Shown here one piece after another: positions 42,317 to 45,969 of a stretch of 64,000 bases of DNA. The position numbers were made by a program, and so were the translations under genes. This stretch comes from Methylibium sp. (GTDB taxonomy: Bacteria; Pseudomonadota; Gammaproteobacteria; Burkholderiales; Burkholderiaceae_C). The notes under the pieces are model-generated. The model made no database searches. It worked only from the letters and a program-made list of their open reading frames with translations, and was not told the DNA's origin. The stretch covers positions 7,498 through 71,497 of the forward strand of contig NZ_JACDCW010000002.1 in the NCBI RefSeq assembly GCF_013817345.1, given 5' to 3'. Each line of letters begins with the position of its first letter. Position 1 is the first letter of the stretch.

Positions 42317-42680
42317 ATGCTGACTTCATTGCCTTGGCGCCATGGACGCGCGGTGTTCGCTGGCGTCTGTGTCTGGCTGGGCGCTACCAGCCAGCGCGCC
42401 GGCGGCGCATGCCGCGACAGCCGAAGCGTGGGCGGCCCACGAGCGGGAAGTGACGGCTGCGTGCGTCGCGGCCAGCGCGCTGCAAGGCGCCCGCGCGGCA
42501 GGCCAGCCGATCGAGTTCGACGATGGCACGGGCATCACCGCGCTGCTGATCACCGGCCGCCATGCCGCCGGGCACATGGACGCAAGGCGTGCCCGCGAAC
42601 TGTGCCTGTTCGACAAGCGAAGCCGCACGGCGGCCGTGTCGCCGGCCGATTCGCTCTTCACGCCGCTGAGCCGACCCTGA
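42317..42680 (+). pseudogene. Conserved-looking secreted hypothetical protein with a probable +1 frameshift in the signal peptide
   Basis: GGAGG RBS and ATG at 42317 give MLTSLPWRHGRAVFAGVCVWL. Removing one G at 42379-42381 joins this to ALPASAPAAHA-ATAEAWAAHEREVTAACVAAS...ELCLFDKRSR. An intact shorter ORF from 42342 is the alternative. Confidence 0.5.
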
Positions 42681-42778: not shown

Positions 42779-43231
42779 TCAGCGCGCCGCCGGCCTCACG
42801 CCCTTGAACTCGATCTCGGCGCGCCGGTTCTCGGCCCGGCCGGTGGCGTTGTCGTTGGCCGCCACCGGCACGGCGGCGGCCTTGCCGTCGGTGGCGATGA
42901 TGGTCGGGTCGACTCCCTTGCCGACCAGAAAGTCCTTGATGGCCTGCGCGCGGCGGACCGACAGACCCTCGTTGTATTCCTCGGGGCCGATGCTGTCGGT
43001 GTGGCCCGTGGCGGTCACGCTTTGCCAGGTGACGTCCTCTAGCTTGTGGACCTCTGTGAGGATGTCTTCGCCGTCGTTCGAGCGCACGCTGGCCTGGTCG
43101 AAACCGAAATTGGCCACCGTGCGCACGGTGACCGGCTCCACCGCCACGCCTGCGGCGGGCTGGGCGGCGGCGGGTGCGCACAGGGCGGCGCTCAGCGCGA
43201 GCGTCAACGGGGTGGCGATGCGGATCTTCAT
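42779..43231 (-). CDS. Secreted OmpA-like peptidoglycan-binding domain protein
   Basis: Signal peptide; NFGFDQASV, GHTDSIG.EEYNEGLSVRRA, GKAAAVPVAANDNATGRAENRRAEI; start overlaps the upstream stop (ATGA). Confidence 0.92.
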   Translation of the reverse strand: MKIRIATPLTLALSAALCAPAAAQPAAGVAVEPVTVRTVANFGFDQASVRSNDGEDILTEVHKLEDVTWQSVTATGHTDSIGPEEYNEGLSVRRAQAIKDFLVGKGVDPTIIATDGKAAAVPVAANDNATGRAENRRAEIEFKGVRPAAR

Positions 43232-45912
43232 GTCGGGCTCCTTTCGGGAGGTGGTGAGGAATGGCCTGTTCGGGCCGGGGGGTTGGGCCGCTGATCGCGG
43301 TCCGGGTTCGTGCATTCGCTGAATCCTTCGGCCGCCGCGGCTGAATACGGCCAGCCGGTTTCGAGCCGCAGGCCGGGCTGCACGGTGCGCCATTGCGGAT
43401 CGCCTTCGCGCTGCAGCGTGGGCAGGGCGCCGCACAGCCCGCGGGCGAAGTCGCGGAGCCGTTCGGCTCGAGCTTCGCTGGCCGGCGGAGCGGAGACCAG
43501 GAAAGACATGACGCCCAGCGTCGGCGTTTGCGCCGCTGCGCCGCCTTGCAGGCTTGTAGTGATCGGCAAGAACGCCTGCAGCGCCCGGCGGCTTGCCGGG
43601 TGTTCGCGGTCCAGGGCCAGCAGCTTCAGATCCGCTGTGGCGGGTACCGGCCGCGACGGTGGAAAGATGTCGCCGACGACGACCATCACGTCGATGCTGC
43701 GCTCGACGACAAGCTGCCGCAGCGCCGCGTCCGGTGCCAGTTCGCTCGTCTGGTCCGGCGCGAGCGGCTGGCCGAACAGGCGCCGGTAGACGGTGGCGGC
43801 GGTCAGGCTGCCGGCGCTTTCGGCCGGGCCGATGTTGATCCTGCGGTCCACGATCTCATGGATGAAGCGCAGCGGCGAGTCGGCCGGCACGAGGAAGTGG
43901 AGGGCGTCGGTGTGCAGCGGCGTAATGATTTCCAGCGGGATCGGCGCCGGCACCTGCCGCGCGGCCTGCAGCGCGTCGTAGCGCACGATCGCCAGCCGTG
44001 CCCCGCCATCCAGCCCTGCCAGCGAGGCGGCCCAGTCCACCGACGACAGCCCGCCGACGTCGATGCCGGCTGCGGGGGGCATGGCGCGAGCCAGCTGGCC
44101 GACCAGACGCCGATCGGCGGCGGCGTCGAGGTCGGTGGCGATCTCGAGCCGGGGGCGGGCGGGCGGGGCGGGCGGCCTGACTTCAGCGTCAGCGGGCGGT
44201 GCCGAGGGGACGGTCGCCTCGGTGAGGGCTTCGAGCGGTGGCCCGGGCGCGGACGGGTCCGCCTGCGGCACCGTGTCGGGAGCGCTGGTCACGGGTCCGG
44301 CGCCCGGCTTGCCGGTCAGCGGGCCGGGGCGGCCGGCGGGCTCGGCCAAGATCTCGTCAGGCGGCTCGGGCGCTTCGGGGACAGGTGAGACGACGGGCGG
44401 AAGGGTTACTTCGGGTACCGAAGGAATGCTGCCCGGCGGGTTGGCGGGCTCGATCAGGAAAAGCACAGCGCTCAGGGCCACGGGCAAGGCAAGCCACGGC
44501 ACCCAGCGCCGCAGCATCGGGCTTCGCCGTGAAACGGTGCCGGCCGCGCTGCCCGGCGGTGCCGGCGCCGACTCTGGCGTTGGGGGTGTGGGCGTCGACA
44601 GGGGTGTAGTGCCGGCGTCCAGCCAGGGCTCGCGGGCGCCGCTCACGCCGGGCGCGGCGGCGGCGAAGGCCGCTTCGTCGGCGGAGTCGATGGGCTGGGT
44701 GCCGCCACTGAACCCCGACGGCAATTCGGCGCGGCTCTCAGGGGCTGGCGCCGCGTCGGCCGGTACTGCGGCGGCGAGGGGCGCGAGGGATTGGGCGGAC
44801 ACCGCCGGCCGTTCGCGCACAGCTGCCTGCGCTGTGAAGGCAAAGGTGGCGCGGGCAGATGCAGATGCAGATGCAGATGCAGATGCAGATGCAGGTGCAG
44901 GTGCAGGTGCAGGTGCAGGTGCAGGTGCAGGTGCAGGTGCAGGTGCAGGTGCAGGTGCAGGTGCAGGAACGGTCGGGACGACAACCTCGGCTTTGCCGCT
45001 AGGCGGCGCCCACTCGTCATCGCCGGGCCGGGCGGTGCGAGCGAGCACCGCCTCGATGGCCGCATAAACCTGATCGGTCTTCGCCGCCCTTGGCACAGCG
45101 GAAGTTTCGCCGGCCCTCGACGCGCCGAGTCTCCTGAAGGTCGGCCGGGCCGGTGCCGCTTCTGAAGCCTCTGCCAGCCGCGCACCATTGGCCGGAAGCT
45201 GCGCGCGCCGCAGGTCGGACGCCGGCGCGAGCTCAAGGCGGTTCGGGTCGAAGCCGGGAATGCGCCGGCACAGGCGCGCCATCAGCGGCTCGGCCTCGTC
45301 GCGCAGGGCGACCAGGAAGTTCACGCGCAGGTCGGGCCGGTTCACCGCCTGCACCAGCTCGTCGGTGAAGGCGCGCAGGTCGGGGCGCCGCGCCGCGCCG
45401 GCCAGACACTCCTCGAAGCGATCGAGCACGATCATCAGGCGCACGCCGGCCTGTTCGCACCAGGCGGCCAGCGTCTGCGCCATGCCGAAGCGTGATGGCG
45501 TCGTGGCTGGCGGCATGGCCAGCGCGTCTCGTACGTTGGCTTGTAGGCCGACCCAGGGCGGCGCCTCCCAGGCGTCGAAGAAGATCGCCACCTCCCGTTC
45601 GCCGCTGTCCGCCGCCACGTCGCCGGGACGACGCCCTTGCGCGCCGGCAAAGCGCAGAACCGGCCCGGATACAGGCCCGACCGCCGGTAACGGCTCGACG
45701 CGCGTGCGCGCGAGCAGCGGCAGCACGCCGGCGGTCAGCAGCGCCGTTTTGCCGGCCCCGGCGCTTCCATACAGCACGGTGAGCCGCGACGAACGCATGC
45801 GGCCGACCAGCAGGAGCGCCTGATCGGTATCGGCATCGCGTCGGGAATTGGAAGCGGCGGGCCAGCGTGCGCTGATGGTCACGGGAAGGGGACGGGTTCG
45901 GTAGAGCCTCAC
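43228..45912 (-). CDS. STAND-like (nSTAND1-type) NTPase - linker - TM - TAXI-type solute-binding domain fusion
   Basis: Walker A LYGSAGAGKT (~45745-45775), Walker B LMIVLDRFEE (~45412-45440), sensor-like FLVALRD; one TM RRWVPWLALPVALSAVLFLI (~44450-44515); C-terminal PBP2/TAXI-like LAIVRYDAL, PLHTDALHFLVPADS, RINIGPAESAGSLTA and DVMVVVG. Confidence 0.75.
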   Translation of the reverse strand: MRLYRTRPLPVTISARWPAASNSRRDADTDQALLLVGRMRSSRLTVLYGSAGAGKTALLTAGVLPLLARTRVEPLPAVGPVSGPVLRFAGAQGRRPGDVAADSGEREVAIFFDAWEAPPWVGLQANVRDALAMPPATTPSRFGMAQTLAAWCEQAGVRLMIVLDRFEECLAGAARRPDLRAFTDELVQAVNRPDLRVNFLVALRDEAEPLMARLCRRIPGFDPNRLELAPASDLRRAQLPANGARLAEASEAAPARPTFRRLGASRAGETSAVPRAAKTDQVYAAIEAVLARTARPGDDEWAPPSGKAEVVVPTVPAPAPAPAPAPAPAPAPAPAPAPAPASASASASASASARATFAFTAQAAVRERPAVSAQSLAPLAAAVPADAAPAPESRAELPSGFSGGTQPIDSADEAAFAAAAPGVSGAREPWLDAGTTPLSTPTPPTPESAPAPPGSAAGTVSRRSPMLRRWVPWLALPVALSAVLFLIEPANPPGSIPSVPEVTLPPVVSPVPEAPEPPDEILAEPAGRPGPLTGKPGAGPVTSAPDTVPQADPSAPGPPLEALTEATVPSAPPADAEVRPPAPPARPRLEIATDLDAAADRRLVGQLARAMPPAAGIDVGGLSSVDWAASLAGLDGGARLAIVRYDALQAARQVPAPIPLEIITPLHTDALHFLVPADSPLRFIHEIVDRRINIGPAESAGSLTAATVYRRLFGQPLAPDQTSELAPDAALRQLVVERSIDVMVVVGDIFPPSRPVPATADLKLLALDREHPASRRALQAFLPITTSLQGGAAAQTPTLGVMSFLVSAPPASEARAERLRDFARGLCGALPTLQREGDPQWRTVQPGLRLETGWPYSAAAAEGFSECTNPDRDQRPNPPARTGHSSPPPERSPT
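44855..44968. repeat. Perfect hexanucleotide microsatellite (GCAGAT)6(GCAGGT)12
   Basis: Counted directly; on the minus strand it encodes a (PA)n(SA)n linker in the STAND-TAXI protein. Confidence 0.97.
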
Positions 45913-45954
45913 CCTTCACTACGGAGCGGCGCTGCCTGCAGATGCAGCGTTTCC

Positions 45955-45969
45955 GCATTTCATGGGCCA
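45955..45969 (-). promoter_or_regulatory. Possible sigma54 promoter for the STAND-TAXI/OmpA operon
   Basis: Minus strand TGGCCCATGAAATGC (GG-N10-GC), ~43 bp upstream of the GTG; imperfect -12 element. Confidence 0.3.

Follow-up and report, generated by a model that had tools for sequence, protein, structure and literature searches.

The minus strand of a 64,000-nucleotide stretch of DNA from Methylibium sp. (assembly GCF_013817345.1, contig NZ_JACDCW010000002.1, positions 7,498 to 71,497), which we refer to as the window and which has a G+C content of about 70%, carries two overlapping genes that appear to form a module of the cell envelope. The first gene (43228..45912) is an open reading frame (ORF) of 894 codons running from GTG 45912 to the stop codon TGA at 43228-43230, and it encodes a bitopic protein with an nSTAND1-type core, a transmembrane (TM) helix and a TAXI-type domain. 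As homologous proteins open with MTISARW, which matches V11-TISARW here, GTG 45882 is the likelier start, resulting in a protein of 884 amino acids (aa). The second gene (42779..43231) encodes an OmpA_C protein of 150 aa with a signal peptide but without a canonical lipobox. Read directly from the sequence, its ATG overlaps the stop codon of the large gene as ATGA, and a ribosome-binding site, AGGAG (43238..43242), is located 7 nt upstream of this ATG inside the 3′ end of the large gene. The ATGA overlap argues for translational coupling of the partner with the large gene. An earlier, sequence-only reading of this locus had described the same domains, motifs, overlap and ribosome-binding site, all of which stood, while its end coordinate of 45969 had to be replaced by the ORF start at 45912.

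From the N-terminus onwards, the large protein consists of a cytoplasmic P-loop core (residues 35-230; 45223..45810), an Ala/Pro/Ser-rich cytoplasmic linker of low complexity (residues 231-469; 44506..45222), a single TM helix (residues 470-488; 44449..44505), a Pro/Ala-rich periplasmic stalk (residues 489-599; 44116..44448) and a periplasmic domain with the TAXI fold (residues 600-870; 43303..44115), all encoded on the minus strand. The cytoplasmic linker, for which a length of ~280 aa had been proposed, measures about 236 aa. It contains a perfect hexanucleotide microsatellite, (CCTGCA)13(TCTGCA)6 (44855..44967, minus strand), which encodes (PA)13(SA)6.

Recurrence of the fusion

Conceivably, the large gene could be an assembly artefact in which two genes were misjoined at the microsatellite, or it could be the relic of a decaying pseudogene. 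A low G+C content at third codon positions (GC3; 0.48) across residues 251-350, breaks inside the linker in the contigs of three metagenome-assembled genomes (MAGs; G013, G015 and G438) and one frameshifted copy (L043/L055) would fit such a history. The low GC3, however, is accounted for by the CCT and GCA codons of the repeat, and the idea of a frameshift at this position was therefore ruled out. Moreover, the repeat has a period of six, so that errors in its copy number cannot change the reading frame; in-frame length variation across copies is likely.

Database searches also spoke against an artefact. A first word-indexed protein search recovered this pair of Pfam domains in about ten proteins, which came from metagenomes and one Methylibium MAG, and a profile search run exhaustively against 1.84 billion cluster representatives (50% identity) returned 391 proteins at E<=1e-30. 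Classification with domain hidden Markov models covered 163 proteins, namely the best 150 of the 391 and the matches of the word-indexed search. Among these 163, at least 96 clusters contained both domains in the same order, with lengths of 546-1014 aa. The order of N-domain, TM helix and C-domain was retained in 96 clusters, most of which lack the microsatellite, and both domains were under clear purifying selection. In a tree of the C-domain the fused proteins grouped together, while 19 secreted stand-alone proteins formed a separate clade; 'alone' entries inside the fused group look like 5′-truncated fragments. The sequence-only reading had reckoned with an artefact if the two domains were always found as separate genes; with 96 fused clusters this is not so, and the fusion is genuine. 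We regard the artefact explanation as having a negligible likelihood and as already refuted for practical purposes.

Domains on either side of the membrane

The motifs on which the assignment of an NTPase had been based, Walker A GSAGAGKT, Walker B IVLDRFEE and FLVALRD, were all present in the translation. Walker A occupies residues 49-56 (45745..45768, minus strand), Walker B (MIVLDRFE) residues 160-167 (45412..45435, minus strand) and the sensor-1 strand FLVALRD residues 199-205. The N-domain thus contains a STAND-type set of motifs, consisting of R40 before strand 1, Walker A, an hhhhDxF[ED] Walker B and an FLVxxR sensor-1. The Pfam model nSTAND1 (PF20703) matched residues 35-206 with an E-value of 2.4e-11 (44.3 bits versus a cut-off of 27.1), the match spanning only model positions 26-162 of 379. 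With hhalign, the family was aligned to residues 31-204 of an nSTAND1-WD40 protein of 1139 aa (99% probability, 29% identity), and this alignment stopped at template residue 204, exactly at beta5. Both results uphold the assignment as an NTPase.

The AlphaFold2 (AF2) model of the N-domain, built from a 10-sequence alignment, had a mean predicted local distance difference test score (pLDDT) of 74, with values above 90 in the core. It showed a five-strand alpha/beta P-loop core that is preceded by an N-terminal helix and contains a disordered insert at residues 71-103. Foldseek matched this model with the cores of ORC/Cdc6, TnsC, Vps4, RdrA and plant NLR proteins at TM-scores of about 0.5. Nothing folded followed beta5 (approximately residue 228) in the model, the helical (HD1/ARC1) and winged-helix (WHD/ARC2) domains being absent, and the family alignments turned into low-complexity sequence past the core. 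The earlier impression that the NTPase stops after its alpha/beta core was thereby borne out, as AF2 and hhalign both end at beta5. In the large protein we found neither a repeat sensor nor an N-terminal effector or effector-associated domain, and only about 30 residues precede the nucleotide-binding domain (NBD). It is the helical and winged-helix domains following the NBD that make STAND proteins ADP/ATP switches. The N-domain is therefore an nSTAND1 NBD that lacks both of these switch-defining domains.

Walker A and Walker B are both intact in the copy of the window. Across the fused clusters, the GK[ST] signature of Walker A was intact in 55 of 96 and degenerate in the remaining 41 (43%), one of the degenerate copies being a congeneric Methylibium copy that still has its OmpA partner. 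Other residues of the N-domain were retained to a much higher extent: D164 (93/96), F166 (91/96) and E/D167 (96/96) of Walker B were nearly invariant, R40 was kept in 89/96, and several other charged residues were conserved as well. Since Walker A has decayed in 41 of the 96 clusters, the family cannot depend universally on ATP hydrolysis, and the NBD would accordingly not be an obligate enzyme across the family. The frequent loss of Walker A, with other surface residues kept, makes this family a natural test case for NTPase cores that turn into pseudo-enzymes.

Shorter variants of the family were also observed. These included soluble proteins of ~425 aa with only the N-domain and linker and lacking the TM helix and TAXI domain, one protein with N-domain, linker and TM helix that ends about 25 residues after the helix, and a protein of 260 aa that represents the N-domain alone. 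They occur among L053 (an Acetobacteraceae MAG), L061 (4963-6240), L011/L020 (Methylibium G006) and P0166/P0167.

The regions connecting the two folded domains proved to be highly variable. In the family, the cytoplasmic linker ranges from 36 to 371 aa (median 120) and the periplasmic stalk from 18 to 192 aa (median 64); both are Ala/Pro-rich, unalignable, hypervariable and predicted to be disordered. Runs of ASASAS and APAPAP were also seen in the distant alphaproteobacterial homologues P0166 and P0167, which contain the N-domain only. A lone hydrophobic helix lies between the two domains in 88-91 of the 96 fused proteins, and in the large protein of the window it is preceded by RRSPMLRRW, in agreement with the positive-inside rule. 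Across the family, the 15 residues before the helix have a net charge of +2.7 and those after it of -0.16, and this bias was found in 79 of 91 cases. The charge asymmetry indicates that the N-terminus is inside and the C-terminus outside, which agrees with the one-helix topology proposed earlier.

Within the low-complexity linker of the window's copy, a short helix, DQVYAAIEAVLARTAR (residues 280-295; 45025..45072, minus strand), was predicted. The corresponding motif, [DE][VW]YAxIEAxLAxTA, recurs in roughly 10-18 of the 96 clusters and in the Acetobacteraceae variant. With this limited occurrence, DVYAxIEAxLAxTA was ruled out as a family-defining feature; the helix may serve as a linear motif for interactions, or it may be what remains of the lost helical domain.

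The assignment of the C-domain relied on structure as well as on sequence profiles. On the protein, NMT1_3 (PF16868) matched residues 660-808 with 25.6 bits versus a cut-off of 27, and a six-frame search of the genome gave 27.6 bits; the TAXI model of NCBIfam, TIGR02122, matched the large protein weakly (15.8 bits versus a cut-off of 84.35). Relatives do clear the PF16868 cut-off, such as P0007 with 66.7 bits. The AF2 model of the C-domain had a mean pLDDT of 85.6, and its top 7 Foldseek matches in the PDB were all TAXI solute-binding proteins (SBPs), with E-values of 2.7e-14 to 1e-10 and TM-scores of 0.69-0.72. Among the top matches were VcGluP, TtGluBP (1US4/8U79), 4DDD and VCA0144. Likewise, a profile search against the PDB sequences identified 4DDD, 9IBO, 8S4J and 1US4 at about E 1e-11. 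The TAXI domain recognized by the sequence-only reading was thus recovered by structure and by profile, and with PF20703 above its cut-off both domains of the fusion have been assigned.

To judge the binding pocket, the ligand contacts of VcGluP, which include Tyr45, Gln93 and Glu125 (PMC11574862), were mapped onto the family by alignment. Gln93 aligned with R644 of the large protein; this position is occupied by Arg in 68 of ~97 fused members, whereas 15 of 20 stand-alone proteins of the sister clade have Gln here. Of the other contacts, the Tyr45 loop was not retained in the fused family, and Glu125 was kept as Glu or Asp. This pattern of substitution suggests that the TAXI pocket was remodelled in the fused clade, with the key Gln replaced by Arg. 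The C-domain also has a conserved C-terminal extension with the motif G[HD]PxWR...GWP, which is likewise found in the sister stand-alone clade. The late Cys pair that had been spotted before corresponds to C827/C867; it is almost invariant and common to the fused family and the sister clade, and it probably forms a disulphide bond within the extension. On longer relatives containing only the C-domain, no alternative cytoplasmic output domains (kinase, GGDEF or HTH) were found.

Further TAXI-like domains were encountered in the genome of the window. Contig C41 encodes one of the secreted stand-alone proteins of the sister clade, a TAXI-like paralogue of 373 aa (NMT1_3, E 3e-26) in which the Gln of the canonical IVQSD motif is retained. 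In front of it lies an ORF with a TM helix and a Pro/Ala/Thr-rich region that runs off the contig start. The C-termini of the two ORFs (L018, 48-1001 and 925-2154) share a similar C-x(7-8)-GLC motif (CEPNRAALGLCER / CTQQERILGLCRTP). On contig C197 (37888-38592, minus strand), another orphan TAXI-like domain (NMT1_3, 53.5 bits) lies in a stop-to-stop frame of 515 codons, with a TM helix on either side and then a coiled-coil-like cytoplasmic tail. This protein represents a second non-canonical, membrane-embedded TAXI architecture in this genome.

With a TAXI fold in the periplasm, the large protein might be a membrane-tethered SBP that feeds a secondary transporter encoded elsewhere (a TAXI-TRAP QM permease, a GltS-type carrier or another one), its cytoplasmic domain being incidental or regulatory. 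Membrane-anchored TAXI SBPs and TAXI proteins that work with non-TRAP carriers are indeed documented (PMC12344293), and one stand-alone protein of the sister clade is encoded near a DctM-family permease. The glutamate-contact residues Tyr45 and Gln93, however, are not kept, the score against TIGR02122 is far below its cut-off, and a stalk of 18-192 residues together with a peptidoglycan-binding partner would hold the domain off the membrane. Nor did the genomic surroundings point to a transporter. In agreement with the earlier remark that no TRAP permease is linked to the gene, none was present on the window's contig, and in the 16 family loci that were sampled for genomic context neither a TRAP permease nor any other transporter gene was adjacent. 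The genome does encode three TAXI-type TRAP permeases elsewhere, each with its own adjacent SBP, which argues that the large protein is not a transporter part. Altogether, we consider a role in transport distinctly improbable. Members of the family are automatically labelled in databases as 'TAXI family TRAP transporter solute-binding subunit' or 'nSTAND1 domain-containing protein', and the transporter label is misleading for metabolic reconstruction of these Burkholderiales.

The OmpA_C partner and the genomic context

The partner matched PF00691 with an E-value of 8.6e-15 (55.3 bits versus a cut-off of 27.2) and contained the peptidoglycan-contact motifs GHTDSIG...LSVRRA and NRRAEIEF. All 25 listed NCBIfam matches of the partner were below their own cut-offs, and it does not score as one of the named OmpA-type lipoproteins or porins (Pal, YfiB, YiaD or OmpA). 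It has no barrel, and its Cys is not conserved among the partners. Given a signal peptide, no lipobox and intact peptidoglycan motifs, the partner is predicted to be a soluble periplasmic cell-wall binder that would need a protein partner for its positioning.

An orthologous OmpA_C gene was located directly downstream of the large gene in 11 of the 16 loci, all of which have a readable downstream region. Next to the window itself, these are the metagenome contigs L002, L003 and L062, the Methylibium genomes G013 and G015, and five MAGs, of which three belong to Rhizobacter, one to Rhodoferax and one to Rubrivivax. The partners closely resembled one another even between loci whose large proteins have no more than ~30% identity. 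Among 61 related genomes, the partner was present at >=60% identity only in G000, G013 and G015, and these are exactly the genomes with a complete large gene; the other relatives have a housekeeping paralogue with ~40% identity. The earlier question of whether ompA is a conserved neighbour can thus be answered affirmatively, with 11 of 16 loci and co-inheritance among the 61 relatives. This co-distribution marks the partner as a dedicated protein, paralogous to the small housekeeping OmpA-like protein and with an orthologous group of its own that is tied to the fused gene.

In the clade without an OmpA gene (P0006-P0010), a DUF3303 protein of ~95 aa was encoded downstream in both loci seen (L001, 10114-10395, and the P0006 locus), which corresponds to two of the five OmpA-less loci. 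Upstream, this clade carries a gene pair for an extracytoplasmic function (ECF) sigma factor and an RskA anti-sigma factor. The DUF3303 gene may be an alternative partner, or it may merely reflect synteny within the clade. Conversely, in L027 (469-1233; G259) the gene after a stand-alone TAXI-like gene of the sister clade belongs to the OmpA family (PF00691, E 2e-19), and the N-terminal part of its product is coiled-coil. The pairing of TAXI and OmpA domains may therefore pre-date the fused family or recur outside it.

The fused clusters mostly derive from Burkholderiales MAGs (Methylibium, Rhizobacter, Rubrivivax and Rhodoferax). To find carriers among genomes, a hand-made IUPAC DNA pattern over R40-D73 was effective: 9 of 9 matches in genome contigs and 3 of 4 in metagenome contigs were true family loci. 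A consensus N-domain query of genome contigs yielded 600 pattern matches and no true relatives, and in a protein search that started from the alignment of the 96 sequences, low-complexity words prevailed and only 7 proteins were returned. In the GTDB species genomes, the DNA-pattern scan identified Methylibium (2), Rhizobacter (3), Rubrivivax, Rhodoferax, an unclassified betaproteobacterium and one member of the Acetobacteraceae. Within the genus, 4 of 16 species matched (G000, G006, G013 and G015), G006 with the N-domain only, and in an even sample of 401 Burkholderiales the full-length fusion was present only in the window's own genome.

In the window, the module is flanked upstream by genes for ABC-F, a PrmC-like methyltransferase, DapE and PilT, and downstream by a convergent thioesterase-GNAT gene. 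Three congeners show the same synteny with a gap of ~640 bp (ABC-F, then thioesterase-GNAT) at the site where the module sits, and a search for remnants of the module at this empty site found none. From this distribution, the module would be an accessory element. No transporter, effector, secretin or regulator gene was conserved across the 16 loci. PADLOC-DB 2.0 yielded only a 16.5-bit stretch of similarity between the large protein and PDC-S68, and, for the OmpA domain, ZorB matches of a generic MotB-like kind.

Comparison with known systems and candidate roles

The architecture had not been recognized as that of a described system, and a literature search found no paper describing an NTPase-TM-TAXI protein. 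Nevertheless, the term 'candidate new system' overstates its distance from bitopic NTPase receptors of the ExeA/GspA and PCTM types. In ExeA, an AAA ATPase on the cytoplasmic side is joined through one TM helix to a periplasmic domain that binds peptidoglycan, on which the protein multimerises with a small partner (PMC4098917). The secretin-assembly complexes ExeA/GspA-ExeB/GspB of Aeromonas and Vibrio resemble the present module in being bitopic, with an N-terminal cytoplasmic P-loop ATPase, one TM helix, a periplasmic part and a small partner gene, and ExeA/GspA may be regarded as the best experimentally studied analogue. In ExeA, however, the PG_binding_1 domain is present in cis, whereas the family described here lacks this domain and instead combines an OmpA_C domain in trans with a periplasmic TAXI domain. 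In addition, no conserved genes for a type II secretion system (T2SS) are found nearby, the AAA_22 match is below cut-off and the ATPase motifs are often lost.

Based on this likeness, the protein and its OmpA partner could be a structural assembly factor that multimerises on peptidoglycan as a trans-envelope scaffold or tether and helps, for example, a secretin or pilus to cross the wall, with the TAXI fold as a platform for binding proteins or glycans rather than as a sensor of small molecules. The shared layout and small partner, the peptidoglycan-binding motifs TD...RRA and NRR retained by the partner, and a Pro-rich stalk that is perhaps long enough to span the periplasm are consistent with this. 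Furthermore, there is a weak match to AAA_22, the Pfam family that presumably houses the ExeA ATPase. This match, however, scores 17.2 bits versus a cut-off of 27, and no GspA match was obtained with NCBIfam. No gene for a secretin or for T2SS or type IV pilus assembly is a conserved neighbour, and the adjacent pilT, dapE, prmC and ABC-F genes merely represent conserved synteny, as they are likewise present at the empty site. The loss of Walker A in 43% of the clusters also argues against an energy-using assembly role. A scaffold of this kind is therefore a serious candidate that we nonetheless consider unlikely.

Comparison with STAND proteins leads to a different idea. The NBD is homologous to that of nSTAND1 proteins (PF20703) through beta5 and contains the same set of motifs, and nSTAND1-type STAND NTPases are reportedly part of conflict systems, as described by Kaur, Burroughs, Iyer and Aravind. 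In the family, however, the NBD continues into a disordered linker, then a TM helix and finally an SBP fold outside the cytoplasm. Neither helical nor winged-helix domains are present, a repeat sensor and an effector or effector-associated domain are likewise missing, and the nucleotide-binding lysine is not conserved. The PCTM proteins, defined as ParA with a C-terminal TM helix, come closer in their layout. They are a computational prediction, and some have an associated extracellular protein of the TAXI family (bioRxiv 10.64898/2026.10.19.760177). As in the present family, a cytoplasmic P-loop NTPase, a TM helix and a periplasmic domain form a type-II, receptor-like protein, for which sensing of periplasmic or peptidoglycan perturbation was proposed. 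The differences are that the NTPase is of the ParA/SIMIBI class in PCTM and of the AAA+/STAND class here, that the upstream effector gene of PCTM is absent here, and that TAXI is a separate gene in PCTM but fused here. As far as such a comparison reaches, the PCTM class would be the best conceptual analogue.

Descent of the NBD from nSTAND1, the precedent of PCTM systems, in which periplasmic domains, and in some cases a TAXI gene, accompany a P-loop NTPase and TM helix, and the sporadic, accessory distribution with an empty site in congeners could all be taken to suggest a transmembrane, NLR-like sensor in conflict or defence. The TAXI domain and OmpA partner would then detect a perturbation of the wall linked to invasion, upon which the nSTAND1 core would oligomerise and act through an effector encoded elsewhere. 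Yet neither an effector domain nor a conserved effector gene was found in the 16 loci, PADLOC produced nothing beyond the short stretch mentioned above, the switch domains are absent and Walker A is often lost. Moreover, the presumed sensor domain is not hypervariable, since among relatives the identity of the C-domain is equal to or above that of the N-domain. For these reasons, we judge a defence sensor to be improbable.

With respect to the remaining known classes, the likeness to the TAXI SBPs VcGluP, TtGluBP/1US4 and 4DDD comprises the two-lobed fold (TM-score about 0.7) and the motifs IVxxD, PL.TE, RADSP and RINIG. The large protein differs in being neither free nor lipid-anchored but tethered through its TM helix and stalk to a cytoplasmic domain, and in having no linked QM permease, an Arg in place of Q93, a replaced Y45 loop and an extra extension with the Cys pair. 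According to TAXI reviews, TAXI SBPs consist of two lobes only, BP0403 being an exceptional three-domain case (PMC12344293). The partner, in turn, shares an OmpA_C domain and its peptidoglycan-binding motifs with anchors of the YfiB/Pal type, but is predicted to be soluble, lacks a lipobox or barrel, scores below every NCBIfam equivalog cut-off and forms its own orthologous group. Together these comparisons show that the family shares the general logic of bitopic P-loop receptors, yet lacks the features that define STAND, TRAP-TAXI and ExeA proteins. The cell-envelope module is real and recurrent, and it resembles neither part of a transporter nor a STAND switch of the classical type.

We tentatively favour the interpretation that the two genes form an accessory envelope module, in which a periplasmic binding domain is tethered to the membrane and anchored to peptidoglycan while the cytoplasmic core mediates self-association or works as an adaptor. 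The first gene would provide a type-II bitopic inner-membrane protein and the second a translationally coupled, soluble periplasmic OmpA_C domain, which would dock on the TAXI domain and pin it to peptidoglycan at the end of the stalk. The Arg-bearing TAXI cleft could then bind a small, probably anionic ligand of periplasmic or cell-wall origin. Because both linkers are long, hypervariable and predicted to be disordered, a conformational relay across the membrane is implausible and the two sides would have to be coupled via localisation or clustering. This, together with the loss of the Walker A lysine in so many clusters, also makes it doubtful that a signal passes through the NTPase, as the sequence-only reading had suggested. 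Output in the cytoplasm would rather arise from proximity-driven self-association of the NBD, the core then acting as an adaptor or scaffold for a further partner. Nucleotide binding may modulate the NBD in copies with intact Walker A and B, and would be dispensable in many lineages.

Several observations weigh against this interpretation. The OmpA gene is absent from 5 of the 16 loci, and no cytoplasmic partner or output gene is conserved across these loci. The conserved residues of the pocket could be structural rather than ligand-binding, and the variants with only the N-domain, or with the N-domain and TM helix, mean that the role of the NBD may be unrelated to the periplasmic domain. In addition, all genome carriers found were MAGs, no cultured carrier being seen.

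A bolder version of the envelope module would be a transmembrane, 'minimal' NLR-type receptor, in which the TAXI domain, pinned to peptidoglycan, senses a wall-derived or invader-linked ligand and signals through nothing but the induced proximity of a STAND core that has lost its autoinhibitory helical and winged-helix domains. Though quite unlikely in our view, such a receptor would, if real, be a bacterial parallel to the clustering of Toll and NLR receptors and would reveal a new output logic for STAND modules. STAND NTPases have been described as soluble tripartite switches. The present family departs, within one polypeptide, from this description as well as from that of TAXI proteins as stand-alone, two-lobed receptors of secondary transporters, and it comes with a dedicated wall anchor. 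Should the TAXI domain sense a ligand, the family would represent a new class among the envelope receptors made of one component; otherwise, it illustrates how an SBP fold and the core of a STAND protein can be put to new use as structural modules.

Lastly, the 585 bp that separate the OmpA gene from the convergent thioesterase-GNAT gene contain an ORF of 112 aa (42342-42680, plus strand). Pfam gave no match for this ORF, and blastn found no counterpart in the empty-site gap of the congeners. Its GC3 is 0.81, and it opens with a signal-peptide-like start (MDARCSLASVSGWALPASAPAAHA).

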